The notes under the pieces: generated by a model | The model's input: the letters and a program-made list of their open reading frames with translations, nothing else | What the model was told of the DNA's origin: nothing | Databases searched by the model: none | Made by a program: the position numbers and the translations under genes | Source of the DNA: Bacilli bacterium | GTDB lineage: Bacteria; Bacillota_I; Bacilli_A; RF39; UBA660 | Length of the DNA: 64,000 nucleotides | Direction: 5' to 3' | NCBI GenBank assembly: GCA_017548925.1 | Contig: JAFYYX010000001.1 | Location: 30,829-94,828, forward strand | Part shown: piece after piece, positions 21,530 to 62,709 of the stretch | Numbering within the stretch: position 1 is the first letter of the stretch | How the letters are laid out: every line of letters starts with the position of its first letter

Positions 21530-21742
21530 TTATTGATATTTTATAATAATTGTTTTTGTAGCGATATCTGAGTAAGCAAATGTTTTTTCACCAGATTTTG
21601 TCATGATACTAAAAATGTTTGGATAAAGTTTATAAATATACCCTTCAAAAATACTTTTTCTATTTCTCATGCCTTTTTCAGTAATAATAACATTTTTATT
21701 TAGTTTCTTTTCAAGTTCGTCTTTAATTACATTTAAATTCAT
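21530..21742 (-). CDS. veg: Veg-like small DNA-binding / biofilm-related protein
   Basis: 70 aa. Synteny ksgA-yabG-veg. Sequence style of Veg (..GYIYKLYPNIFSI..). Confidence 0.7.
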   Translation of the reverse strand: MNLNVIKDELEKKLNKNVIITEKGMRNRKSIFEGYIYKLYPNIFSIMTKSGEKTFAYSDIATKTIIIKYQ

Positions 21743-22512
21743 TATCTAGGAAACCCCACATACATTAAGCCATTTCCTATAAGTCCGCCCATTCCATCAG
21801 CGCCATACTTAGTTTTATTTAATAACTTAATTAAATCAATCTCTTTATTTTTTTCTGTAATTGCAACACACGATGCTATTATCGCAGGATCAAGAGCATG
21901 AATATTTATCCTTTTGGGACTTGATGCATAATTAGCACCAGCCTTAATTAAATCCTCATAATCACTCTGACAAGCACCAGCTATAATAACAAGTTTCTCG
22001 TGGCTTTTTTCATAACTTCTTGCAATTTTTACTGAATCAACATAATATTTTGAATTCTTATAATTATTAATATCTTCTTTATTACCCTTTTTCTTATAAT
22101 ATGCGTCATGCCCTGTAATAACTAAAATATCAGGTTTATATTTATTTAATAATATTTTAATTTGATTAGACATATTTTCTTCTTTAACTTTTTTTCCTAT
22201 TGCATATACCTTTTTAGATTTATAAAACTTTAAACAACTATCTAAATATTCACCATCTCCATCAAGATGAAGAATCTTTCCTGGTAGATAAAAATATTCT
22301 TTATTTCTATCTTCATTATTAGTTATTTCAACATCAAAAGAATTTATATTTGCGTCATTACAAATTTTTAAGTCGTTAGTTGGCGCATCAGCAAGAAGTC
22401 GAACTTCTACACCTTTTAAATATGTTTTATCATTTTCTATCTTAATGATTTTAAAAATCACATCATTATTATAACTGTTGCGAGAAACAATATCCCCAAC
22501 ATTAAAAATCAT
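21742..22512 (-). CDS. yabG: Sporulation-specific protease YabG (peptidase U57)
   Basis: The N-terminus (GDIVSRNSY..DV.FKII.IEND...LKG.EVRL.ADAP..DL) parallels B. subtilis YabG. Synteny. Confidence 0.75.
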   Translation of the reverse strand: MIFNVGDIVSRNSYNNDVIFKIIKIENDKTYLKGVEVRLLADAPTNDLKICNDANINSFDVEITNNEDRNKEYFYLPGKILHLDGDGEYLDSCLKFYKSKKVYAIGKKVKEENMSNQIKILLNKYKPDILVITGHDAYYKKKGNKEDINNYKNSKYYVDSVKIARSYEKSHEKLVIIAGACQSDYEDLIKAGANYASSPKRINIHALDPAIIASCVAITEKNKEIDLIKLLNKTKYGADGMGGLIGNGLMYVGFPR

Positions 22513-23353: not shown

Positions 23354-23893
23354 TTACCATCCTATTCTTAAAACATCATAAGTTATAGTAGATCTACCAA
23401 TATATTTGCTAGCATATTCTTCAGTAGAGGTTAATAAATCAAGATTATTCCCCGGAACCCCTCTATCTAATACTATAGCAATTACGGGATCTGGAGAAAT
23501 ACTCTTTTTATTAAACCTAATAATTGTTCCACATGGAAGATTTTTAGATGATGCAACAATTTTTACGATTCCATATTCTTTATCAGGATAATAATCTCTT
23601 CTATCTCTAACATTATACTTGTATGCACAAGCTAAAGTACCTCCACATAAAGGACAATCATGTGCATATCCAGTTAACTGACCAGTATAAGTATCTTTAA
23701 CAGAATATAAATCATTTTCAATCATTTCATTAACTTTTAAAGCCATTGTTGTTAAATCAACATTACGATTAACATTTTCATTTTCAACCTTATTAAGTTT
23801 TACAGTTGTACTTGATCCAGCAATAAAAACGACAAAAAATATTAAGGAAATCTTAATAGATGTAAAGATATATTTCGATAATCTTTTTATCAT
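23354..23893 (-). CDS. 3D-domain (RlpA/MltA-like double-psi beta-barrel) protein, YabE-like
   Basis: N-terminal TM. C-terminal NLPCGTIIRF..IAIVLDRG...LDL 3D-domain motif. Start moved to the ATG at 23893, which has SD GAGAGGTGA. Confidence 0.6.
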   Translation of the reverse strand: MIKRLSKYIFTSIKISLIFFVVFIAGSSTTVKLNKVENENVNRNVDLTTMALKVNEMIENDLYSVKDTYTGQLTGYAHDCPLCGGTLACAYKYNVRDRRDYYPDKEYGIVKIVASSKNLPCGTIIRFNKKSISPDPVIAIVLDRGVPGNNLDLLTSTEEYASKYIGRSTITYDVLRIGW

Positions 23894-25827: not shown

Positions 25828-28800
25828 TTATATTATCTTTTCAAGAAGTGGTACTAAGTAATATAAGAAATGTTTATCATCTTTTTTAATAAAAAACATA
25901 ATTGTTATACAATCATTAGCATACTTAAACTTAAAGTTTGGACTAATTTGCATAGCTTCAATGAATAATAAATCTCCTTTTATTTCCTGGGAAATATTTT
26001 TTGGAAGTGTAATTTCTACCATTCTTTCATTTTGAACTACTCTTGTTATACCGCAAGATTTAGCCATACTATCGAACCATTCTTCATACATATAAATTTC
26101 AAGAGACTCTGGTAATTTACCAAATCTATTTTCAAGTTCTGATTTAACATCATTAAAGGTTTCACTTGAAACAACTTGATTAATAAGTTGATGAATTTCA
26201 ATTTTAATATCTTCATCACTAACATAATCATCACTAATATGAGTCTCAACTTCAACTAAACTATTTGTATCATTAGTTTCTTCTAAAATATCTTCATCAT
26301 TGCCAGACAAACTCTCAGAAATTAGTTTAGTATATAAACTAATACCTATAGAATCTATAAATCCAGCTTGCTCACTACCTATAATATCTCCAGCACCCCT
26401 AATAGATAAATCTTTCATAGCTACTTTATATCCACTACCAAGTTCAGTATATTCTTTAATTGCCTCTAATCTTTTAGATGCAGTTTCAGTTAATATTTTA
26501 CCTGGCCTATATAGTAAATAGGTATATGCTATTTTATTACTTCTACCAACTCTACCTCTAAGTTGATATAACTGACTTAATCCAAATTTATCAGAATCAT
26601 AAACAATTAATGTGTTTGCATTTGATATATCAATACCCGTTTCGATAATAGTAGTACATATTAAAATATCGTATTTATAGTCATAAAAATCATTCATTAT
26701 ATCTTCTAGATCAGTCTTACTCATTTGTCCATGTGCTACACATATTCTTGCATCTGGCGCTAACTTCTTAATTTGATTAGCTTTATTTAATATATGTTCT
26801 ACTGAATTATATAAAATAAATACCTGACCATCTCTGGATAACTCTTTATAAATAGCATCTTTAACTAATAAGTCATTTTCTTCAATTACATATGTTTGAA
26901 TAGGATATCTATCAACAGGTGGTGTATCAATAATAGACATATCTCTTACGCCAGATAAAGCCATTTTCATAGTTCTTGGTATTGGAGTTGCAGATAAAGT
27001 TAAAACATTAACATTAGTTTTTACCTCTTTTATCTTTTCTTTGTGTGCAACACCAAAACGTTGTTCCTCATCTATAATTAATAAACCTAATTTTTTAAAC
27101 TCTATTTCATCATTTAATAATCTATGAGTACCAAAAACCATATCTATTTTTCCTGATTTTAGTCCCTCAACAATATTTTTATATTCTTTTTGTGTAGTAA
27201 ATCTATTAACTAATGCTATTTCTACTGGGTAGTTTTTGAATCTTTCAACAGCACATAAATATTGTTGGTGAGATAAAATTGTTGTTGGACATAAGTACAT
27301 TACTTGATGATTATTAAACACAGTTTTAAACATAGCTCTAAATGCAACTTCAGTTTTACCAAAACCAACATCACCACATAAAAGTCTATCCATTGGTTTT
27401 CTACTTCTTAAATCATCATTAATATCCGATATTGCTCTTACTTGATCTTTTGTAAGTTCATAAATAAATTCAGATGCAAATACATCTTCTTCAGGAACAT
27501 CTACAAAAGCATCACTTAATACATTAGATCTTTCTTTATATAATTTTATTAATTTTTCAGAAATATCATTAATTTTCTTTTTAATTGCAGCTTTAGTTTT
27601 AGCCCAAGTAGTAGAATTTAATTTATTAAGTTTAGGCGGAGTTCCATCTGCATCACCATATTTATATAAGTTATTAATTTTTTCAACTGGTACATATATT
27701 TTATCGTTACCAGCAAAATCAAGTTGTATATAATCTTTGGAAATACCATTTTTAGTAAGATTAATCATACCAACATACTGACAAATACCATAGGTAACAT
27801 GAACTACATAATCTCCTTTTTCTAATTGATCAGAAGATTTTATTTTTTTACCAAAATGATAACTATTTTTAAATTTTATTTTATTATCAACAGTTCCTTC
27901 TAAATCATTAGAAGTAAATACTGCAAGATTATTAACTATAAAACCTTTATTAACTTCAATAGGAAGTACTTTAATTCTATTACTAAGTTCAGAAGCTATT
28001 TTTTCTTTTAATTCTTTATTTTTAGTACAAAAATATACTTTTTTGTTAGAAAGCAATAACTTATCAACATCATCTTTAAATAAATCAAAATTTCCTTTAT
28101 AATTACTAGCTTCTTTTGAATTTAGATCAATATCATCGGTTGAATAATTAAGTTTATTTAAATAATTAAATTTTTTTATTTGAATATCATCAAAGTTGAA
28201 CATTATTTTTTGATATTCTTCATCTTTTCTTTCAAAGTACTCAACTATATCACTTACTAATTTTTTGTAAGCAGCATCAATTTGGGGTTTATCAATGTAA
28301 TAAACCCAATCAGGGTTTATATAATCAACTAAAGAACTATGTTCTTTATCATTAATCTCAGTAAATGGTGTGATTTTTAATGTTGATAACTTATTAGTAG
28401 TCATCTGTGTATCATAATCAAATTCTTTAATACTTTCTACTTCATCATCAAAGAACTCAATTCTAACTGGATAATTACTTCCCATTACGAAAATATCAAC
28501 AACAAAACCTCTTACAGCAAACTCACCAGTTGAAGTAACAAGTGAATCTCGTTTATAACCTAAATCATTAAGTTTTTTAACAAGTTCATCTCTAGATATT
28601 TTAGAACCTATCTTAATATCAATTATACTTTCTGAGTAAGTATGTTGCTGCGGTAAATATCTTAAATAACCCATCAAATTAGTAATAATAATATGATGTT
28701 TATAATTACTATTTAAAACATCTAATCTTGATGCCTTAAACTCAGGAGAAACAGCAATAGCAACAGATGTAATAAAATCATCCATTGGAAACATAGCTAC

Positions 28801-29534: not shown

Positions 29535-30248
29535 TCACTCCTTTCGAAATATATTTTTGAATGTTTTTCTATCCTGTATTGAAATAATAGGTCTTATTTT
29601 TATTCCAGGATTAGAACCTTTTACACATTTTACTAATACTAAAGTTGGTTCCTTACCATCTTTAGTAGATACTAACTGAATATTTTTTACATTAATATTA
29701 TATTTAAAACAACAGTTAATAATCTCATCTAATCTTTCAGGTCTATGAACTAAATATAATTCACCATCTTTTTGTAAAATATTTGAAGATATTTGAATTA
29801 TTTCATCTAAACTAATCAATAACTCATGTCTTGCAATAGCTTTTACTTTATCATCATTAATATATGATGTACTATCCTTCTTAAAATATGGTGGATTACA
29901 TACTATTACATCAATATTATTTCCTGGGAAATAATTTTTCACATCTTTAACATCAGAAAGAACGAGATTTATTTTATCACTTAATTTATTATATTCAATA
30001 GATTCTTTGCCTAATTCATATATTTCTTTTTGCACCTCAACGGCAGTGATCTTTGCATTTGTTTTGGTTGATAAGATCATTGACACAGCACAATTACCAG
30101 AACATAATTCTATAATGTTTTTAGTTCTATTTGTAAGATTAACATATTCGGCTAATAGTACCGAATCTAATGAAAATTTAAAATATTTATCATCTTGATA
30201 TATTTTTAAAGGTACATAATCATATAGATCATTTAACATTTTAGTCAT
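29535..30248 (-). CDS. tRNA (adenine37-N6)-methyltransferase-like SAM-dependent MTase (YabB/TrmN6-like)
   Basis: NPPY motif (VCNPPYFKK), a SAM-binding motif (IELCSGNCAVS) and synteny next to yaaT. Confidence 0.65.
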   Translation of the reverse strand: MTKMLNDLYDYVPLKIYQDDKYFKFSLDSVLLAEYVNLTNRTKNIIELCSGNCAVSMILSTKTNAKITAVEVQKEIYELGKESIEYNKLSDKINLVLSDVKDVKNYFPGNNIDVIVCNPPYFKKDSTSYINDDKVKAIARHELLISLDEIIQISSNILQKDGELYLVHRPERLDEIINCCFKYNINVKNIQLVSTKDGKEPTLVLVKCVKGSNPGIKIRPIISIQDRKTFKNIFRKE

Positions 30249-32936: not shown

Positions 32937-34544
32937 TTATTCCTCCACTACTATATTATTTTCACCAAATATGTTATTTGCTAAATCTTCGATTTCACTC
33001 TTTTTTTCTTCAAGTTTTGGTTCTTCAATATATTCATACTTAATTTTTTTATTAGTTTTGTCTTTATAATCACTTACTAATTCGTTCCATTTATTCTTGT
33101 CAACGAATACTATTTTTTTATCTAGTGATAAATCAGCTATAATTTTTGATTCTTTTTCATTTAATAATTTAGCTGAAGCATCAGAATCACAAACAAATAA
33201 AATATTTGTTGCAGATACTACACCTACTTCAGTATCAATAAATAAAGAATATATATCAGAATCATTCTTTAATTTTTCAATTAGTTCAGAAAGATTTTTT
33301 TCTAAATCACTTTTCATTTTCTTATTTGCATTAGCAAATGAGTTATTAATTCTAATATTAATAATATCTAAGTTGTTGTTTACACTAGGTAAATTATTTG
33401 TTTCTTTTACTTCATTATTTATTTCCTGGGAAATATTTTTTTCTTCTTTTTCAACAATAATTTCAGTTTTATCATTATTATCAAGTTTCTTTTCATCCAA
33501 AATATTATTACTATCAGAAACATCGTTAATGACATTATCACAGGCCAAATTAGATACTATTATCATCTTTATTACATCATAATAATTAAAATTAACTTTA
33601 AAGTTATCAATTTTTATTGTTTCAAATACTATATTTTTAAGATTAGGTACTTTAGAACTGTCATTAATAGAACATATTTTGTTTGTTAAGACACTAATGA
33701 ATTTACTTACAAAAGATTTTTCATTAAATCCAAATTCTTTCAATGAATCAAAAATTTTTTTAATATTAGCAACATCATTATTGATAATTGATTCAACTAA
33801 GTTAACAATTACTGATTCTGAAACAATTCCAAATTGTTCATTTAATAAATCAGCATTAATAGGTTTATTTAGTGTAATTAATTGATCAAGGATACTTAAA
33901 GCATCTCTTAACCCACCATCAGATAAATCAGCTATTTCTTTAACAACATCATCATCTAATTCCATTTTTTCTTGCTGAAGAACATAATTTATTCTATCTA
34001 CTAAAGCTTTTTTAGAAATTTTGCTAAAAGCAAATTGTTGGCATCTTGATAAAATTGTTTGTGGAAGACTCTCTGGATTAGTTGTAGCTAAAATGAATAT
34101 TGCATGACTAGGAGGTTCTTCCAATGTTAATAAAAATGCATTTGCAGCACTTGGAGTAAGCATATGAACTTCATCAATAATGTATATTTTATATTTAGAA
34201 CCAGCTGGTGCTAATTTTACATTATTTACTATTTCTCTAATATCCTCCACTTTATTATTAGAAGCTGCGTCTAATTCAATAATATCTGGATTTTTATCAA
34301 AATTTAAACAAGAATCACATTTTCCACATGGTTCTCCATCTTTTGGATTTACACAATTAATTGCTTTGGCAAATACTTTTGCTGTAGATGTTTTACCAGT
34401 TCCTTTTGGACCAGAAAAGATATATGCATGTGAAATTTTATTGTTAATAATTGATTCCTTTAATGTATCAGTTATAAATTTTTGATCTACAATGTCATTA
34501 AAGTTGGATGGTCGATATTTTCTGTATAAAACCTTATAACTCAT
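32937..34544 (-). CDS. dnaX: DNA polymerase III subunits gamma/tau
   Basis: YRKYRP..F.D..GQ, GPKGTGKTS Walker A and a CxxC zinc module (CGKCDSC). Confidence 0.9.
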   Translation of the reverse strand: MSYKVLYRKYRPSNFNDIVDQKFITDTLKESIINNKISHAYIFSGPKGTGKTSTAKVFAKAINCVNPKDGEPCGKCDSCLNFDKNPDIIELDAASNNKVEDIREIVNNVKLAPAGSKYKIYIIDEVHMLTPSAANAFLLTLEEPPSHAIFILATTNPESLPQTILSRCQQFAFSKISKKALVDRINYVLQQEKMELDDDVVKEIADLSDGGLRDALSILDQLITLNKPINADLLNEQFGIVSESVIVNLVESIINNDVANIKKIFDSLKEFGFNEKSFVSKFISVLTNKICSINDSSKVPNLKNIVFETIKIDNFKVNFNYYDVIKMIIVSNLACDNVINDVSDSNNILDEKKLDNNDKTEIIVEKEEKNISQEINNEVKETNNLPSVNNNLDIINIRINNSFANANKKMKSDLEKNLSELIEKLKNDSDIYSLFIDTEVGVVSATNILFVCDSDASAKLLNEKESKIIADLSLDKKIVFVDKNKWNELVSDYKDKTNKKIKYEYIEEPKLEEKKSEIEDLANNIFGENNIVVEE

Positions 34545-34585: not shown

Positions 34586-34999
34586 TTATCGCAATTTATT
34601 AAAGAAACTTTGCAACATTTTTTGACACTTTTCAGTATATAAATTTTGTTGATAAATATACTTGGTTTTATTGTATTCTTTTTTTGATTCAAGTCGTTCA
34701 GTAAGATAATATACATTACTAATTCTTGCATTGTTAATAACTTTAGTGCACATTTCGCACGGTTTTAAAGTAACATATAAGTCGCAATCATATAAAAAAT
34801 ATGATTTAAGTTTCTTGTTAGCTTTAAGTATTGCATCTATCTCAGCATGATTGATAATTTTATTTTCCTTTTCACGTTTATTATAACTTTTAGAAACAAT
34901 CTTATTATTTTTAACAATAATAGCACCTACTGGTACATCTCCGTATTTCAATGATTTTTCGGATAATTTAACTAATTTATCATAAATATTCATTTTCAT
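34586..34999 (-). CDS. tadA: tRNA-specific adenosine deaminase
   Basis: HAE...PCEMC CDA-fold zinc motif. 137 aa. Synteny tadA-ffs-dnaX. Confidence 0.85.
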   Translation of the reverse strand: MKMNIYDKLVKLSEKSLKYGDVPVGAIIVKNNKIVSKSYNKREKENKIINHAEIDAILKANKKLKSYFLYDCDLYVTLKPCEMCTKVINNARISNVYYLTERLESKKEYNKTKYIYQQNLYTEKCQKMLQSFFNKLR

Positions 35000-35011
35000 A
35001 ATTCACCTACA

Positions 35012-35092
35012 TAAAAAAAGTGCACACAAACAGGGATTGACGTGGCTGCTTTCTTCCGAATCTGACCAGATTACAATATATTTGTTGCACGT
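35012..35092 (-). ncRNA. ffs: Signal recognition particle RNA, small (4.5S-like) form
   Basis: Minus strand reads GUGCAACAAAUAUAUUGUAAUCUGGUCAGAUUCGGAAGAAAGCAGCCACGUCAAUCCCUGUUUGUGUGCAC-U7. Domain IV consensus GGUCAG-N3-CGGAAG-N-AAGCAGCCA is present. The 5' and 3' ends pair (GUGCA.ACAAA with UUUGU.GUGCAC) and are followed by a U-run. GC-rich island. An upstream TTGATA-17-TATTTT promoter is present. Confidence 0.75.
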
Positions 35093-35136
35093 TATTAAAA
35101 TAACATATCAATTAATAAATATCAAATAATTAATTA

Positions 35137-35152
35137 TGTTCCACGTGGAACT
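35137..35152. promoter_or_regulatory. parS: parS site 1 (TGTTCCACGTGGAACT, 15/16 palindromic)
   Basis: Matches the Firmicute parS consensus TGTTNCACGTGAAACA in both half-sites. About 9 kb from oriC. Confidence 0.7.
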
Positions 35153-35179
35153 ATAAATATAATTATTTAAAATTATTAA

Positions 35180-35195
35180 TGTTCCACGTGGAACA
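35180..35195. promoter_or_regulatory. parS: parS site 2 (TGTTCCACGTGGAACA, perfect 16-bp palindrome)
   Basis: Perfect palindrome matching parS half-site TGTTCCAC twice. 43 bp from site 1, between the gyrA terminator and the ffs promoter. Confidence 0.75.
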
Positions 35196-35198
35196 TAA

Positions 35199-35226
35199 AA
35201 AAAGATGAGTTACTACTCATCTTTTA
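35199..35226 (-). terminator. gyrA terminator (agatgagt tact actcatct plus T-run on the minus strand)
   Basis: 8-bp stem overlapping the gyrA stop codon. A7 on plus equals U7 on minus. Confidence 0.6.
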
Positions 35227-37798
35227 CTTCAGTTGGTTCAGCAACTTCTAGATCATTAGTATCTAAACTATCATCAGATTCTTTATCTACTAAACTTACT
35301 GTAGCTACTTTTTGTTCATCTTTAAGATTAATTAATCTTACACCTTGAGTTGCTCTACCTAAAACGGATACTTGATCCAAACTCATTCTCATAGTCATAC
35401 CAGAATCAGTCATAATAATAGCATCTGGTTCACCATAAATAAGTTTAACTGCAACTATATGTCCATTTTTGTCAGTAATGTTGATAGCTTTAACACCTTT
35501 ACTACCTCTGTTAGTTTCTCTGTAGTCATTTACTCTAGATTTCTTACCATATCCATTTTCTGTAACTATTAAAATTATGTCATCATCTCTAACTACTTCA
35601 AGACTAATACATTTGCTATCAGCTAAATTAATACCTCTTACACCAGCAGCTGTTCTACCCATTACACGAACGTTATCTTCTTTAAACTTAACCATTCTTC
35701 CTGCATCTGATGCCATCATAATCATTTCTTCTCCTGATGTTGGTTTAACAGCAAGTAATTCATCGTTATCTTTTAGTGTAATTGCAATTTTTCCTGAGTT
35801 TCTAATATTTTCAAACTCTCCTATTGGAGTACGTTTAATAATACCATTCTTAGTAGCAAATGCTAAATAGTTGATATTATCGTTTGTTGATATCTTTAAC
35901 ATACTGCAAATAAATTCGTCTTTATCAATTTGAAGTAAGTTGACAATAGGTAAACCTTTACCTTGTCTAGAATATTCAGGTACTTCATAACCTTTAAGTC
36001 TATAAACTCTACCTTTATTACTAAAGAATAGTACATAATCATGTGTTGATAAGTTAATTAAGTGATCAACTTTATCATCTTCATTAGTTGTCATACCTTT
36101 AACTCCTACACCACCACGGTTTTGTGTCTTGTATGTAGAAGATGGAACACGTTTAATATATCCCTTTTCAGTAAGTGAGATAATAATATTTTCTTCAGGT
36201 ATTAATGATTCATCCTCAATATAATCAACTGCTGTCATATCAATTGTTGTTCTTCGATCATCGGAATATTTACGCTTAATTTCAGACATTTCGTCTTTAA
36301 TTATACCCATTACTTTTTCTTCACTTGCTAGAATTGAACGTAATTCTTCAATTGTTTTATGTAATTCTTCTAAATGATTTTCAATATCTTCTCTAGCTAA
36401 TCCAGTTAATCTTCTTAACTTCATTTCTAGAATGGCTTGTGATTGAATTTCATCTAAACCAAATTTTTCCATTAAGCCAGATTTAGCTTCATCATCAGTT
36501 TTAGATGCTTTAATTAATTTAATAATTTCATCAATATTATCTAAAGCAATCTTTAATCCTTCATAAATATGAGCTTCTTCTTCAGCTTTCTTTAAATCAA
36601 ATTTAGTTCTTCTAATAATAACTTCTTTTTGATGATCAATATATTTTGAAATAATATCTTTTAGACCTAGTGTTTTAGGCGTTTTATCATCAATCATTAA
36701 TAAAATTATTCCATAACTAACTTGGAAGTTAGTAAGTTTAAATAATTTGTTTAAAACTACTTGTGCATTTGCATCTCTTTTAAGAGTAATTGTAATTTTT
36801 AAACCATTTTTAAGATCTGTGTGATAATCAGATATACCATCAATTATCTTATTGTGGACAAGTTCAGCAACTCTATTCTTAAGATCTTGTGTATTAACTC
36901 CATATGGAACTTCAGTTATTACTATATTTTGATGTGTTCCTTTATCTTCGATTTCTGCCTTACTTCTAATAGTAATTGTTCCTCTACCAGTTTCATATGC
37001 TTTTTTAATACCACTATTTCCTAAAATAATACCACCTGTTGGAAAATCAGGTCCTTTAATGTATTGCATTAAACCTAAAGTATCAATTTCAGGATTATCA
37101 ATATATGCTATACATCCATCAATAACTTCTCCTAAATTATGTGGAGGAATGTTGGTAGCCATACCAACAGCAATACCCATAGTACCATTAACTAAGATAT
37201 TAGGAAATTTAGATGGAAGAACTACTGGTTCTTCGTAAACTTCATCAAAGTTAGGTATCATATCTACAGTATCTTTTCTAATATCTCTTAAAAGTTCAAG
37301 AGAAATCTTAGATAATCTTGACTCTGTATAACGGTAAGCAGCAGCACCATCACCTTCGATGTTACCAAAGTTACCATGACCATCAATTAACATATATCTT
37401 TCATTGAAATCTTGAGCAAGTCTTACCATAGCTTCATAAATTGATGAGTCACCATGTGGATGGTAACGACCCATAACATTACCTACAGTAGTAGCACATT
37501 TTCTATGAGGTTTATCTGGAGTATAACCATTTTCATACATTGACCATAAAATACGTCTATGTACTGGTTTTAAACCATCTCTTAAATCCGGAATTGCACG
37601 AGATGTAATTACAGATACAGAATAGTCAATAAATGATTTTTTTATTTCTTTTACAATGTTATTTTCGATGAAACTATCTCTTTCATGAAATTCTCCACCA
37701 TAATTAGTTTCTTCTTCAATAGTGTTCTCTTCTACTTCTTCAGTTACTTCAGTATTTTCAACTGGAGTTTCTTCAACTTTTATTTCTTCATTATCCAT
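35213..37798 (-). CDS. gyrA: DNA gyrase subunit A
   Basis: 861 aa. Active-site region AAMRYTE approximates AAYRYTE, with six C-terminal beta-pinwheel repeats. There is an acidic N-terminal extension of about 25 aa. Confidence 0.97.
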   Translation of the reverse strand: MDNEEIKVEETPVENTEVTEEVEENTIEEETNYGGEFHERDSFIENNIVKEIKKSFIDYSVSVITSRAIPDLRDGLKPVHRRILWSMYENGYTPDKPHRKCATTVGNVMGRYHPHGDSSIYEAMVRLAQDFNERYMLIDGHGNFGNIEGDGAAAYRYTESRLSKISLELLRDIRKDTVDMIPNFDEVYEEPVVLPSKFPNILVNGTMGIAVGMATNIPPHNLGEVIDGCIAYIDNPEIDTLGLMQYIKGPDFPTGGIILGNSGIKKAYETGRGTITIRSKAEIEDKGTHQNIVITEVPYGVNTQDLKNRVAELVHNKIIDGISDYHTDLKNGLKITITLKRDANAQVVLNKLFKLTNFQVSYGIILLMIDDKTPKTLGLKDIISKYIDHQKEVIIRRTKFDLKKAEEEAHIYEGLKIALDNIDEIIKLIKASKTDDEAKSGLMEKFGLDEIQSQAILEMKLRRLTGLAREDIENHLEELHKTIEELRSILASEEKVMGIIKDEMSEIKRKYSDDRRTTIDMTAVDYIEDESLIPEENIIISLTEKGYIKRVPSSTYKTQNRGGVGVKGMTTNEDDKVDHLINLSTHDYVLFFSNKGRVYRLKGYEVPEYSRQGKGLPIVNLLQIDKDEFICSMLKISTNDNINYLAFATKNGIIKRTPIGEFENIRNSGKIAITLKDNDELLAVKPTSGEEMIMMASDAGRMVKFKEDNVRVMGRTAAGVRGINLADSKCISLEVVRDDDIILIVTENGYGKKSRVNDYRETNRGSKGVKAINITDKNGHIVAVKLIYGEPDAIIMTDSGMTMRMSLDQVSVLGRATQGVRLINLKDEQKVATVSLVDKESDDSLDTNDLEVAEPTEVKDE

Positions 37799-40928: not shown

Positions 40929-41375
40929 TTATATTTTACGGTACCTAATAATGCTTTCTAATCTTGATGATCTTAGTATTTGATTATTAATTGTTTCATA
41001 TGAACAATTTAAATATATTTTATTATTATCTATAAACTCAATTTCTACCTTATTTTCAGGCATTTTTCTATAACTTTTAATATATTTATTTCTAATCCAT
41101 GAACATTCATTTAATCTACTAGATGTTGTAGGAAAAAAGATAATTTCATTACTTTCTTCTATAATTATTGGAACTTTGTGAGTAATTCCAGTTAATTTGT
41201 TAGTACCTTTTACTCTTCCATCATAACTAGAACCAAAATATTCACAACTATACTTAATAATTTTATTAGGTAATACATTATCTAATATAAACTTGTTATT
41301 TTTTTCATATACAATAGTTTTGTTACTATCATATATTAATGCAATTGTATTATTATTAATTTCATAATTTAACAT
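40929..41375 (-). CDS. comK: ComK-family protein (competence transcription factor homolog), short form
   Basis: CEYFGSSYDGRVKGT and THKVPIIIEESNEIIFFPTTSSRLNECSWI parallel B. subtilis ComK CRFFGSSYAGRKAGT and SHKPPIMVDPSNQIFLFPTLSSTRPQCGWI. 148 aa. Lacks the ComK C-terminal region of about 40 aa. Confidence 0.7.
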   Translation of the reverse strand: MLNYEINNNTIALIYDSNKTIVYEKNNKFILDNVLPNKIIKYSCEYFGSSYDGRVKGTNKLTGITHKVPIIIEESNEIIFFPTTSSRLNECSWIRNKYIKSYRKMPENKVEIEFIDNNKIYLNCSYETINNQILRSSRLESIIRYRKI

Positions 41376-42671: not shown

Positions 42672-44021
42672 TTATAAACTAGATTTAATTTTATTAATTG
42701 TATCAACTAATTCAATATCACTTTTTATTTCTTTATCAATCTTATCACAAGCAAATATAACTGTTGAATGATCTCTACCACCAAATTCTAAACCTATTCT
42801 TTCAAGGGTTTCATCTGTTTCCATCTTACATAGATACATAGCAATTTGACGTGGATAAGCAATATTATTTGTTCTTTTCTTACCTTTCATATCATCAACT
42901 GTTATTTTAAAGTAATCAGCTACTATTTTTTGTATTTTAGATATACTACTTTCAACATATACATTTTTATTAACAAAATCTTTTAATGATTCTATTGCAA
43001 ATTCAAGAGTTATTTTTTCAGGTACATATATAGCAGTACATGCTGTTAATCTATTTATTGTTCCTTCAATATGTCTTACATCTGATGGACATGCATTTGC
43101 AATATATTCAATAACATCTTCATCAATTTTATTTTCAATTGATGTATTTTTAATTTTTTCTTTAATAATTCTACATCTAAGTTCAAAATCAGGTGGATAT
43201 ATATCAACAGGTAATCCCCACATAAATCTTGATCTTAATCTTTCTTCTAATTTTTTCAAATCATCTGGTGATCTATCAGAAGAAATAATAATTTGTTTGT
43301 TAGTTTTATGTAGATAATTAAATGTATTAAAAAATTCTTGTTGAGTTTTTTCAGCACCTACTAAAAATTGAATATCATCTATAATAAGTACATCTACATT
43401 TCTATATTTACTTTTAAACTGATTAGCATAATCAATTGTATTACTATTTTTACTAACATCTGCAATACCAGTAAAATCATTCATAAACTCATCACTTGTT
43501 ACATATAAAACTTTTTTATTACTGTTTTTCATAATAAAGTTTCCTATAGCATGCATCAAATGAGTTTTACCAAGTCCACTTTTTCCATATATAAATAATG
43601 GATTATGAATAGTTCCTGGAGCTTCGGCAACAGCACTTGCTGCTATAAAAGCTAGTTTATTTGAAGCACCAACAACAAAATTTTCAAATGTTAAATTAGG
43701 ATTTAAATTAGATTTCCATTCAAGTTCATTATCTATATCATTATTAACACTATCTATAAAGTTATTTTCACCAGCAAGAATAAAGTTGATGTCATATTCT
43801 ATTCCTGTTAATGAAAGAAATATGTTTTGAATAATATTATAATATGTAGTTCCAAGTATTGTTTTATGAGTTGGCATCGGTACTTGAATAGTAATATTTT
43901 TGTTATCCATATGAACCAGTTTTAAGTCTTTAAACCAAACTTGATAAGAAGTAATATTAACTTGTTTTTGTACTTCTTCAAGAAAGCTTGACCATACGGT
44001 TTCAATTTTCAACCTTATCAC
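42672..44021 (-). CDS. dnaA: Chromosomal replication initiator protein DnaA
   Basis: AAA+ Walker A GKSGLGKTHL, sensor motifs, C-terminal HTH (DHSTV). Confidence 0.97.
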   Translation of the reverse strand: MIRLKIETVWSSFLEEVQKQVNITSYQVWFKDLKLVHMDNKNITIQVPMPTHKTILGTTYYNIIQNIFLSLTGIEYDINFILAGENNFIDSVNNDIDNELEWKSNLNPNLTFENFVVGASNKLAFIAASAVAEAPGTIHNPLFIYGKSGLGKTHLMHAIGNFIMKNSNKKVLYVTSDEFMNDFTGIADVSKNSNTIDYANQFKSKYRNVDVLIIDDIQFLVGAEKTQQEFFNTFNYLHKTNKQIIISSDRSPDDLKKLEERLRSRFMWGLPVDIYPPDFELRCRIIKEKIKNTSIENKIDEDVIEYIANACPSDVRHIEGTINRLTACTAIYVPEKITLEFAIESLKDFVNKNVYVESSISKIQKIVADYFKITVDDMKGKKRTNNIAYPRQIAMYLCKMETDETLERIGLEFGGRDHSTVIFACDKIDKEIKSDIELVDTINKIKSSL

Positions 44022-44153
44022 CCCACCAACTATATAACGATTAAAATTATTTTAAACCAATTGTTAGTAAAATAAAAGAAAAAAATAAGTAAGAAAAATT
44101 ACTAACATCAGTTATTAACAAACAATTTTCGGTAGAATTTATTATAAAACAAG

Positions 44154-44171
44154 TTATCCACATTATCCACA
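44154..44171 (+). promoter_or_regulatory. Two tandem perfect DnaA boxes (TTATCCACA-TTATCCACA)
   Basis: Exact match to the DnaA box consensus TTATNCACA, twice in head-to-tail arrangement. Confidence 0.8.
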
Positions 44172-44260
44172 ATTTTTAATTTTTTTAATAAACAATTAAC
44201 AATTGATAAAAAATAGTTATCAACAATAATGTTAATAACTAAGTTTTCTTAGGTTTTTCC

Positions 44261-44290
44261 TTGACTTTATAATGTTTATAATATTATAAT
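44261..44290 (+). promoter_or_regulatory. rpmH promoter (TTGACT-17/18-TATAAT)
   Basis: Consensus-like -35 and -10 elements about 35 nt upstream of the rpmH ATG. Confidence 0.55.
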
Positions 44291-44323
44291 ATACACGCTT
44301 AGTTAGTTTTGGAGGTGTGAATT

Positions 44324-44455
44324 ATGAAGGCAATGGGATGTACTTATCAACCAAATAATAGAAAAATGAAAAAGAAACAAGGATTTTTTGCTAGAACTGA
44401 ATCTAAAATTTTAAAAACTCGTCGTGCAAAAGGTCGTAAGAGACTTACAAAATAA
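44324..44455 (+). CDS. rpmH: 50S ribosomal protein L34
   Basis: MKAMGCTYQPNNRKMKKKQGFFARTESKILKTRRAKGRKRLTK. The TYQPNNRK...RRAKGRKRL core is L34. Not in the ORF track. SD GGAGGTG lies upstream. Confidence 0.85.
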   Translation: MKAMGCTYQPNNRKMKKKQGFFARTESKILKTRRAKGRKRLTK

Positions 44456-44465
44456 CCACTAGTAT

Positions 44466-46442: not shown

Positions 46443-46486
46443 GATATTTCCCAGGAAATATCTTTTTATGTTAGAAAGGTGATTTT

Positions 46487-50497: not shown

Positions 50498-51922
50498 ATG
50501 GATGAAACTAAAGAAGTACGTCAAATTCCGATTGAGGATATAATTCCCAATCGTTTTCAACCACGCATAAATTTTGATGAAAAAGCATTAAATGAACTTG
50601 CTGAATCAATAAAACAACATGGAATAATTCAACCACTTGTTTTAAGACCTTTGGGTGATAAATTTGAAATTATAGCTGGCGAAAGAAGATTTAAAGCAGC
50701 TACATTAGCTGGATTATCAACTGTACCAGGTATTGTAACTGAAATGGATGATAATACTAGTGCAGAAGTTGCACTAATTGAAAATGTTCAAAGAAAAGAT
50801 CTAAGTGCTATTGAAGAAGCTAAATCATATAAAAATATGCTTGAAAGAAGTAATATAACTCAAGAAGAACTAGCTAAAAAAATGGGGTTATCTCAATCAA
50901 CTATAGCTAATAAGTTAAGACTTTTGAATTTATGTGATGAAGTTCAAAATGCGCTTTCACAAGAAAAGATTTCAGAAAGACATGCAAGAGCACTTCTTGC
51001 AATATCTGATAAAGATGAACAAATTAAATGGTTAAATAGAATTATCAATGAAAGACTAACTGTTAGACAATTAGATTTAGCTATTAAAGATGAACAAAAA
51101 GAAGAAACAGAATTCGAAGAAGATATTCCAAAAGTAAATATTAATCCTGATATTGATAGTATTATAAATAATGCTAGTGATATTAATGCTAACGTTAAAC
51201 CTGTTGAAAACAATGCAACTAATGATGTTTTAACTGATAATGTTGCACCAACTGAAATAAAACCGGGCAAATTCTTTAATTATTTAGAAGATGAAGAAGT
51301 TAATATGAATGTTTCTACTGAACCTGAAGAAGAAAAACAACCTGTTAATGATGGAATGTTTAATTTTACTCCAGAATTTGCTGAAGCATCAGATAATCAA
51401 CCTGAACAACCAACTGAAGAAATTGATTCTCTTGATTTTGAACCAACTCAATCAGTTCAACCTGATGAACCAATATATAATGAAGAAACTATTACAAATG
51501 ATATAAATAATCAAGTTGTTAATGAACAAGTTACTCCTGATATACCTCAAGATGATCAAGTTGATGTGGTTAATAATTCTCAAGAAACTTCTGTTTCAAA
51601 TGAAGAACCAGAGTTTATATTTGATGATGAAGATGATGATGAAGGAACTACTTCAGCTAAACCTGTAACTGATGATGTAAAAGTTGAACCTATTCCAGTA
51701 ATGGAAGGTGAAGGAATAACTGATCCAGTTTCATATTATGATACACTTGATCCAAATTTTATGGACAAAGTAAAAGAATTTATTGGTCTAGATTTAAAAA
51801 ATGCTATTAGTTCTTATCGTAACGTAACAAATGACTTAATAGCTTCTGGATTTAATGTAACAATTGATGAAACAGATTTAGAAGATAAATATAAAATAGA
51901 AATTAATATTAATAAAGATTAA
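50498..51922 (+). CDS. noc: ParB-family protein of Noc type (ParB N-domain plus HTH) with a roughly 270-aa acidic low-complexity C-terminal tail
   Basis: IPNRFQPR, GERRFKAA, and HTH GLSQSTIANKLRLLNL plus ISERHARAL closely parallel B. subtilis Noc (GKGQSTIANKLRLLKL, ITERHARAL). The tail is rich in D/E/P/T/N/V and ends in a short, probably folded segment. Confidence 0.75.
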   Translation: MDETKEVRQIPIEDIIPNRFQPRINFDEKALNELAESIKQHGIIQPLVLRPLGDKFEIIAGERRFKAATLAGLSTVPGIVTEMDDNTSAEVALIENVQRKDLSAIEEAKSYKNMLERSNITQEELAKKMGLSQSTIANKLRLLNLCDEVQNALSQEKISERHARALLAISDKDEQIKWLNRIINERLTVRQLDLAIKDEQKEETEFEEDIPKVNINPDIDSIINNASDINANVKPVENNATNDVLTDNVAPTEIKPGKFFNYLEDEEVNMNVSTEPEEEKQPVNDGMFNFTPEFAEASDNQPEQPTEEIDSLDFEPTQSVQPDEPIYNEETITNDINNQVVNEQVTPDIPQDDQVDVVNNSQETSVSNEEPEFIFDDEDDDEGTTSAKPVTDDVKVEPIPVMEGEGITDPVSYYDTLDPNFMDKVKEFIGLDLKNAISSYRNVTNDLIASGFNVTIDETDLEDKYKIEININKD

Positions 51923-58282: not shown

Positions 58283-58783
58283 ATGAGAAAAATAGTTATT
58301 TTTATTTTTATGATAACATTACTAATATGTATTTTAAATAAGAAAAATAGTGTTTTAATACCTAATTTAGCTGTTAGAATAAGGGTAATAGCTAACAGTA
58401 ATGATATAAAGGATCAAGAAATAAAAAACATAATTAAAAACGAAGTAAGTTCACTTTTATATTCAAAATTACAAAATATTGATAATTATAAAGCAGCTAG
58501 TAAGATTATCGAAAGTACGATACCGGAAGTAAAAAATATAATAAATAAATACACAAATAATTATGAAATAAATTATGGAGAAAACTACTTTCCAGAGAAA
58601 GAATATAAAGGTGTAAGATACGAAAAAGGTGATTATAAATCATTACTAATAAAACTAGGTGAAGGAAAAGGAAATAATTTTTGGTGTGTGTTATTTCCTC
58701 CGCTATGCATGATTGATGAATCAAAACTAAATAATGTGGCGTATAGCCTTTATGTTACTGAATTACTAAAAAAGATTAAATAA
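58283..58783 (+). CDS. spoIIR: Stage II sporulation protein R
   Basis: Signal anchor and IRVIANSNDIKDQEIK (approximating SpoIIR R(L/F)HV(I/L)ANSDS..DQ.LK). Synteny prfA-prmC-spoIIR as in Bacillus. Confidence 0.7.
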   Translation: MRKIVIFIFMITLLICILNKKNSVLIPNLAVRIRVIANSNDIKDQEIKNIIKNEVSSLLYSKLQNIDNYKAASKIIESTIPEVKNIINKYTNNYEINYGENYFPEKEYKGVRYEKGDYKSLLIKLGEGKGNNFWCVLFPPLCMIDESKLNNVAYSLYVTELLKKIK

Positions 58784-61526: not shown

Positions 61527-61555
61527 TTGACAAATTTGTGTAAATATGGTAATAT
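61527..61555 (+). promoter_or_regulatory. Strong sigma-A-type promoter (TTGACA-17-TGgTAATAT) driving the downstream noncoding region
   Basis: Perfect -35. 17-nt spacer. Extended -10 TGnTAATAT. Confidence 0.6.
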
Positions 61556-61561
61556 TTAATA

Positions 61562-62084
61562 CATACATGTGGAGCACTATTCTAGTCGCATATGTTGTTT
61601 GAAGGTAGGGCTAAAAATCTACCAATCGCGAAAAGACACTTTGTATATTAGCTTCATCCGCCCAGGTTGGGGTGATATATAATTTTAAGCCTAAGGAAAG
61701 TTATAATGGCATATAACCTATAGTCCTTTTGCTACGTCCGTTAATTAAAAATCGTGTGTCGTGAGTGATTATGTGGGATAAACATATAAGAGTACTGCTA
61801 TTGATCAAGCTTTCATCTGTTTTGAAAACATAGTTGCAAAAGCGAATAAGAACAGCCTCTATAGCGTCAGGGAAAACCTCTAGAGTGTATATATTGTAGG
61901 TATTAAAGTATGGACTAAGTGGCAATCGAGTATTGTGGACGGTATTAATAGTTGCAATAGATTCATTAAGGAGAAATCGCCTAAGGGTAACCTATGGTTG
62001 AATCTAGAGAAATTCAACTCGACCTAAGCCATAAAATTGATTTACAATATACCATTTATGTATATTTTTAATTAAAGAACTTTA
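61562..62084 (+). ncRNA. Candidate large structured noncoding RNA (about 520 nt), possibly OLE-like
   Basis: No ORF longer than 60 aa on either strand. GC is about 38-43% versus about 26% for the window. It is promoter-driven and has multiple local hairpins (e.g. GGUAG..CUACC at 61604-61623, GUUGAAU..AUUCAAC at 62006-62027, UUAGCUU..AAGCCUAA at 61648-61694). CCUAAG is repeated three times. It runs directly into a 4-TM protein gene. Confidence 0.45.
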
Positions 62085-62616: not shown

Positions 62617-62709
62617 TTTATGCTTGAAAGAGCATAAAAGTATGATATAATACCTATGCGAATGAAAAAAACTATGTTATGGATTTAACATGGCGAAAGG
62701 AGAATATAG

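Follow-up and report, generated by a model that had tools for sequence, protein, structure and literature searches.

A probable parS pair in the gyrA-ffs spacer of an uncultured Bacilli bacterium and its counterparts in related gut species

Results

Genes and features around the origin

The window is the whole stretch of 64,000 nucleotides that was analyzed here. Its G+C content is about 25%. The minus strand encodes dnaA, dnaN, a ComK-family gene, recF, gyrB, and gyrA. The dnaA gene lies at 42672-44021 (minus strand). The spacer between dnaA and rpmH (44022-44465, no strand assigned) contains the oriC region, with DnaA boxes and a GC-skew switch. Two perfect DnaA boxes were found, at 44154 and 44163. 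The GC skew switches sign at ~44,000.

The gyrA gene (35213-37798, minus strand) matched DNA_topoisoIV at 3.2e-163 and also contained DNA_gyraseA_C. Its intrinsic terminator (35200-35225, minus strand) consists of an 11-bp stem and then a T-run. The SRP RNA gene ffs was found at 35005-35101 (minus strand; Rfam, 54.6 bits). It is followed by tadA (34586-34999) and dnaX (32937-34544), and ybaB and recR come further downstream, beyond dnaX. The ffs promoter (35097-35125, minus strand) contains a -35 hexamer TTGATA, a 17-bp spacer, and a TG-extended -10 element TATTTT. We infer a transcription start near 35090 (GTGCAAC).

Two palindromes occupy the spacer between gyrA and ffs. The order on the minus strand is gyrA stop, terminator, parS-B, 27 bp, parS-A, 11 bp, -35, -10, and SRP RNA. 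The gyrA gene is transcribed toward the pair, with its terminator directly upstream of parS-B, and ffs is transcribed away from it. The pair lies 8.8 to 9 kb from oriC and is thus origin proximal. An earlier reading of the sequence alone (the sequence-only reading) had placed two parS sites about 9 kb from oriC, in the interval that separates gyrA from the SRP RNA promoter and close to the -35 of an ffs-tadA-dnaX unit. The open reading frame calls and the Rfam match agree with that position. The GC skew, dnaA, and the DnaA boxes agree with the distance, and 11 bp separate the -35 hexamer from parS-A.

The window contains several other features. The ComK-family gene (40929-41375, minus strand; Pfam, 6.3e-40) lies between dnaN and recF and is also present on a metagenome copy of the locus (L001). 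The interval between dnaN and recF usually holds a small S4-like gene (yaaA/remB). A full-length OLE RNA (61553-62071, plus strand; Rfam, 234.7 bits) was found in this gut-associated MAG of 25% G+C. It is followed by a 171-amino-acid open reading frame (the identical gene of L087 had no Pfam hit) and an L31 leader (62672-62702). The sporulation genes SpoIIR, YabG, and SpoIID were found at 58283-58783 and 21742-22512 of the window and at L087:10656-11537. The main contig is only ~1.04 Mb, which would be very small for the genome of a spore former. GATC is underrepresented in the window (123 observed versus 183 expected under a Markov model) and in every relative checked. The observed/expected ratio of CpG in the window is ~0.44.

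The two palindromes

parS-A is the promoter-proximal site (35137-35152, no strand assigned). It reads TGTTCCACGTGGAACT, also given as TGTTCCACGTGGAACt, and is palindromic at 15 of 16 positions. The single break is at base 16, which is T and not A. parS-B is the gyrA-proximal site (35180-35195, no strand assigned). It reads TGTTCCACGTGGAACA and is palindromic at 16 of 16 positions. Together with a flanking A and T it forms an 18-bp palindrome (35179-35196), the form typical for the lineage. The two sites are 43 bp apart from start to start, with 27 bp of AT-rich DNA between them. The pattern search returned the same pair of 16-bp palindromes at the same spacing as the sequence-only reading, which had called both of them perfect. 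This is correct for parS-B but not for parS-A.

The core of both sites reads TGTT..CACGTG..AACA. parS-B differs from the strict consensus TGTTNCACGTGAAACA at one position, with G for A at position 12. parS-A contains the same G12 and one more mismatch, T16. The match to the Firmicute consensus that had been claimed is therefore exact in the core and fails at position 12 in both sites. Both sites are a palindromized version of the TGTTCCAC half-site (the C5/G12 variant). Both carry G1/A6 in the TNTTNCNCGNGNAANA frame and are thus of the parS type and not of the NBS type.

Shuffled sequence gave an expectation of 0.04 matches per window at three or fewer mismatches, and none of 100 shuffles gave three matches. 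The pattern search returned a third match at this threshold at 23525, and the degenerate consensus at two or fewer mismatches added 26158. Each of these parS-like sequences (23525-23540, TGTTCCACATGGAAGA; 26158-26173, GGTTTCACTTGAAACA) has two mismatches and falls within a coding region, and each is probably either a chance match or a decayed site.

Three other identities were ruled out for the pair. A LexA Cheo box reads GAAC-N4-GTTC and the window sites read GTTC-N6-GAAC, so that the exclusion made from the sequence alone stands on both the orientation and the spacing of the half-sites. The half-sites do not fit the CcpA cre consensus TGWNANCGNTNWCA. The sites are not NBS sites, as they carry G1/A6 and not the A1/C6 of TATTTCCCGGGAAATA.

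Conservation of the array in related species

We retrieved 80 origin loci from species-representative genomes by a DnaA-based search (DnaA identity, 61 to 79%). All were from uncultured gut MAGs of the "Bacilli / Tenericutes / Mycoplasma sp. CAG:776" type. The gyrA C terminus, SRP RNA, tadA, and dnaX were used as anchors for the spacer, and the loci of 53 species span gyrA to ffs. The ffs-tadA-dnaX order is kept in the relatives, and the gyrA-ffs spacer measures between about 100 bp and 1.4 kb.

All 53 species contain parS palindromes in this spacer. There are 221 sites, with 1 to 9 per genome and a mode of 4. Only 11 of 232 parS sites lie outside the spacer in ~1.4 Mb of origin-region DNA. 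This concentration shows that the 16-mer is not a dispersed repeat unrelated to the origin, a possibility that the sequence-only reading had named as a check on itself. The canonical sequence TGTTTCACGTGAAACA is the most common, with 136 copies. The C5/G12 variant of the window has nine further copies, and it shares arrays with canonical sites in L006, L032, L048, and L074. The flanking bases A...T surround 213 of 240 sites in the relatives.

The invariant blocks of the alignment of short spacers (A1) are the A-TGTTnCACGTGnAACA-T palindromes, the TTG of the -35, the extended -10, and the 5' stem of the SRP RNA. The promoter letters TTG, TGnTAnnnT, and GTGCAAC are unchanged in it. This phylogenetic footprint and the presence of sites in the same spacer of 53 of 53 relatives bear out the reading of the pair as origin-proximal parS sites. 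The pair falls toward the bottom of the lineage's range in copy number. The sequence-only reading had regarded the tandem pair as a strong nucleation point, which does not fit with two copies in a range of one to nine.

The arrays differ in age and arrangement. The array of L068 (L068:19492-19911) contains a 64-bp tandem unit in 6.6 copies with 88% match, nested in a 191-bp unit with 96% match. It shows that parS arrays grow by recent tandem duplication. The array of L040 is old, and the 16-mers alone survive in it. The retention of the 16-mers in diverged arrays and spacers is the pattern that selection on the protein-binding site itself leaves. The spacing between sites in the relatives is continuous from 34 to 553 bp, which rules out a fixed helical phasing. 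The parS sites of L023 (L023:19323-20140) flank the SRP RNA gene, with two sites before ffs and three between ffs and tadA.

NBS-type sites

The window also contains four sites of a separate class, given here as context. An NBS-type site, TATTTCCTGGGAAATA, lies at 25981-25996 (no strand assigned). Identical copies were found at 29918-29933 and 33420-33435, and a copy in the other orientation was found at 46445-46460. None of the four is more than 18 kb from oriC, and the outer 62 kb examined contained no such site.

The window and the 80 loci (1.39 Mb) contain 190 parS-type sites (G1/A6) and 75 NBS-type sites (A1/C6, TATTTCCCGGGAAATA) in a shared palindrome frame. G1/A6 and A1/C6 distinguish parS sites from NBS sites (PMC7383237). 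Essentially no G1/C6 or A1/A6 hybrids were found among these sites, about 265 in total. The parS sites gather at a single locus, whereas the NBS sites are dispersed. Two classes without hybrids and with these two layouts imply two readers.

Seven relatives (L063, L065, L075, L078, L080, L081, and L083) contain one to three NBS sites inside the gyrA-ffs spacer. The NBS sites are interleaved with parS in L065 (L065:18739-19434). They follow the last parS site and precede ffs in L081 (L081:19652-19815) and in L063. Binding sites of two paralogues thus appear to be co-clustered in these spacers.

The four NBS sites of the window share one asymmetric change, CCTGGG or CCCAGG for CCCGGG. The nearest relatives, L005 and L007, have the same change. 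CCCGGG is absent from the whole window. Avoidance of CCGG was ruled out as the source of the variant, with nine CCGG observed and 7.9 expected.

The Noc-type protein

The sole ParB-family gene within ~84 kb of oriC lies at 50498-51922 (plus strand). It encodes 474 amino acids and directly follows rsmG. The next gene, on the opposite strand, is a PBP gene. The protein matched Geobacillus Noc structures at 2.8e-59 and Bacillus subtilis Spo0J at 7.6e-51. The NCBIfam Noc model TIGR04285 gave 289.9 bits, below its cutoff of 315, and the generic ParB model gave 181.6 bits. The TIGR04285 alignment covers model positions 1 to 221 of 255, and the missing C-terminal part was attributed to a long linker. 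This linker is acidic and of low complexity, comprises ~200 residues, and connects the HTH domain to a C-terminal domain that resembles that of ParB by eye.

The recognition elements of the protein read QSTIANKLRLLNL...SERHAR. The four specificity positions (173, 179, 184, and 201) are Q-K-N-R, which matches the Noc set Q173, K179, K184, and R201 at three of four residues. The corresponding residues are Q-K-K-R in B. subtilis Noc and R-H-T-G in B. subtilis Spo0J. Among the matches listed, 119 of 120 orthologue clusters have Q-K-N-R. A single permissive lysine, at 179 or 184, is reported to suffice, whereas Q173 recognizes adenine 1 of the Noc-binding site and R201 its cytosine 6 (Jalal et al., PMC7383237). 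We therefore regard the protein as Noc type, given these residues and the Noc model as its best family. It is predicted to read NBS and not the parS sites of the window.

The protein does not contain an N-terminal amphipathic membrane-targeting helix, which textbook Noc requires. Only 16 residues of its open reading frame precede the PNRFQPR motif, and an upstream extension is impossible. The same short N terminus was present in 109 of 120 orthologue clusters (336 to 573 amino acids) among the matches listed.

L040 encodes the only ParB-family protein with a divergent recognition helix (L040:703-1302; SVNTIQNKLKLL, V-K-T-R). All nine sites in its array (L040:19213-20230) read TGTTACACGTGTAACA, and no NBS site was found in its 21 kb. 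The pairing of helix and sites may be covariation, or it may only be a result of greater divergence.

The cognate reader of parS

No ParB with R173 and a small residue at 201 was present in the ~84 kb around oriC or in the related loci. The N terminus of the ParB-family protein of the window was used as a tblastn query against the window, the 80 DnaA loci, and four same-species copies, and no second ParB was found. No ParA was found in the same set with B. subtilis Soj (an approximate sequence) as the query. Pfam scans of the window open reading frames gave no second ParB and no ParA. The 10 kb past either end of the window likewise contain neither. Three more distant neighborhoods of the orthologue have the synteny rsmG / noc-type / PBP and contain no second ParB and no ParA. 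The homology search matches listed were orthologues of the Noc-type protein only, a listing that would not have brought out a paralogue. The sole nearby ParB-family protein is of the Noc type and there are two site classes, so the parS reader is placed elsewhere by elimination. We infer that it is a canonical ParB encoded outside the ~84 kb around oriC.

Alternatively, the canonical ParB may have been lost, and the Noc-derived Q-K-N-R protein may read both parS and NBS and act as the centromere protein. We consider this unlikely. It would explain why only one ParB-family gene was seen, both within ~84 kb of oriC and across all the related loci. The absence of the membrane helix, which makes textbook Noc action impossible, is also consistent with it. 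Dual-specificity variants occur in the mutational scan of 160,000 variants, but all parS-specific variants among the 1,385 strong parS binders had R173 (PMC7383237), where this protein has Q. The NBS sites inside the parS-bearing spacer of seven relatives, and the position of all four NBS sites of the window within 18 kb of oriC, could point to one reader. The overall layout of clustered parS and dispersed NBS is nevertheless that expected of two systems, and a loose dual reader would tolerate the hybrids that are essentially missing. The V-K-T-R helix of L040 coincides with nine sites that all read TGTTACACGTGTAACA. However, the change in these sites is at a position that is already N in the Bacillus consensus, and L040 is the most diverged genome, which makes the coincidence weak evidence.

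Such a lineage would have neither a canonical ParB nor ParA, and an anchorless Noc-derived CTP clamp with an acidic linker would serve both parS and NBS. This version of events is likewise improbable. If it were true, a nucleoid-occlusion paralogue would have been repurposed as a centromere protein. The published four-residue code for ParB and Noc specificity would then not be transferable to the scaffold of this protein.

Promoter and terminator context

The proximal site lies 2 to 11 bp from the -35 hexamer in the window and in the aligned short-spacer relatives. It ends 26 to 37 bp before the start of the SRP RNA model in 37 of 53 relatives. These distances would suit operators of a transcription factor, possibly ParB, that chiefly control the ffs-tadA-dnaX promoter. 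This is very unlikely, as the sequence is the universal parS and the copy number and spacing (34 to 553 bp) vary freely. Distal copies can be as far as 1.3 kb from the promoter, and the last parS site is 369 to 457 bp from ffs in six relatives. The adjacency may simply arise because the promoter bounds the spacer. Given the short distance to the -35, the sites may have a secondary effect on ffs transcription.

As RNA, parS-B could form a weak hairpin (-7.9 kcal/mol), and a terminator scan flagged it with its T-rich tail as terminator-like. Folded jointly with the gyrA terminator hairpin, it gave -19.9 kcal/mol. parS-A does not have a T-run. The first site of the relatives often lies directly after the gyrA stop codon, and T-runs were found at 26% of first sites and 6% of inner sites. 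That the palindromes are mainly RNA hairpins, which act as backup gyrA terminators or as insulators before the ffs promoter, is hardly credible, as a much stronger dedicated terminator already lies upstream in the window, arrays of up to nine sites ~100 bp apart and inner sites without T-runs would be unaccounted for, and the exact parS is kept rather than any GC-rich stem. At most, termination is a side function that the first site has in some relatives. A first site with a T-run may help to end gyrA transcripts in about a quarter of them.

Discussion

The palindromes in the window are most likely chromosomal parS sites and the two-copy form of the array that this lineage of uncultured, AT-rich gut Bacilli with small genomes carries between gyrA and ffs. 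This reading is based on the match to the consensus core, the chance expectation of 0.04, the conservation in 53 of 53 species, the proximity to the origin, and the two site classes. Sequence comparison strongly supports the identity of the pair as parS.

We propose that a canonical ParB/Spo0J dimer, with arginine at 173, would nucleate on each palindrome of 16 to 18 bp. It would bind CTP, close to a sliding clamp, and spread outward into the neighboring DNA, including the ffs promoter. The resulting ParB complex would mark the origin region and load SMC. The nucleation, CTP clamp, and SMC-loading steps are those of the ParB family in general. Convergent gyrA transcription, with its terminator, borders the array at one end, and a strong ffs promoter that fires outward borders it at the other. 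Since no ParA gene was seen near the origin, the system is probably ParA independent, like those of Streptococcus pneumoniae and Staphylococcus aureus.

ParA-less ParB-parS-SMC systems have been documented in these two species (PMC7333895). Like them, the system described here has few parS sites close to oriC and no ParA seen near the origin. The role of the sites here is likely SMC loading rather than ParA-driven transport. S. aureus also carries Noc. The Noc-type protein described here differs in that it has no membrane helix and contains an acidic linker of ~200 residues. The absence of ParA in this lineage holds for the loci covered here, and the presence of a canonical ParB is presumed.

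In B. subtilis, parS sites are spread across the part of the chromosome near the origin. This lineage instead packs its copies into one gyrA-ffs spacer, and it has no soj-spo0J operon beside the noc-type gene. The sites resemble the Spo0J parS of B. subtilis and other Firmicutes (TGTTNCACGTGAAACA) in the 16-bp core, the proximity to the origin, the multiple copies, and the non-Noc discriminating bases (PMC7383237).

Clustered parS arrays are usually adjacent to parAB in Caulobacter, Pseudomonas, Corynebacterium, Myxococcus, and Streptomyces. The array described here lies instead in the fixed gyrA-ffs spacer and grows by tandem duplication. It is similar to the arrays of those genera in that the clustered sites are near the origin and their copy number varies by species (PMC7333895). 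The lineage also has the elements of the Noc-NBS system (TATTTCCCGGGAAATA), with NBS sites, a Noc-type protein, and a palindrome frame common to parS. The window pair differs from NBS in its G1/A6 bases.

A parS pair in the window is expected for the origin region of a Firmicute and adds little alone. The lineage is worth flagging for a Noc-type paralogue without a membrane anchor and a parS reader that is probably encoded away from the origin region. It is established that parS copy numbers range from 1 to over 20, and a review raised the question of why the number varies and why the sites cluster (PMC7333895). The series of 53 species, with one to nine parS sites in one fixed spacer, bears on both the variation in number and the clustering.
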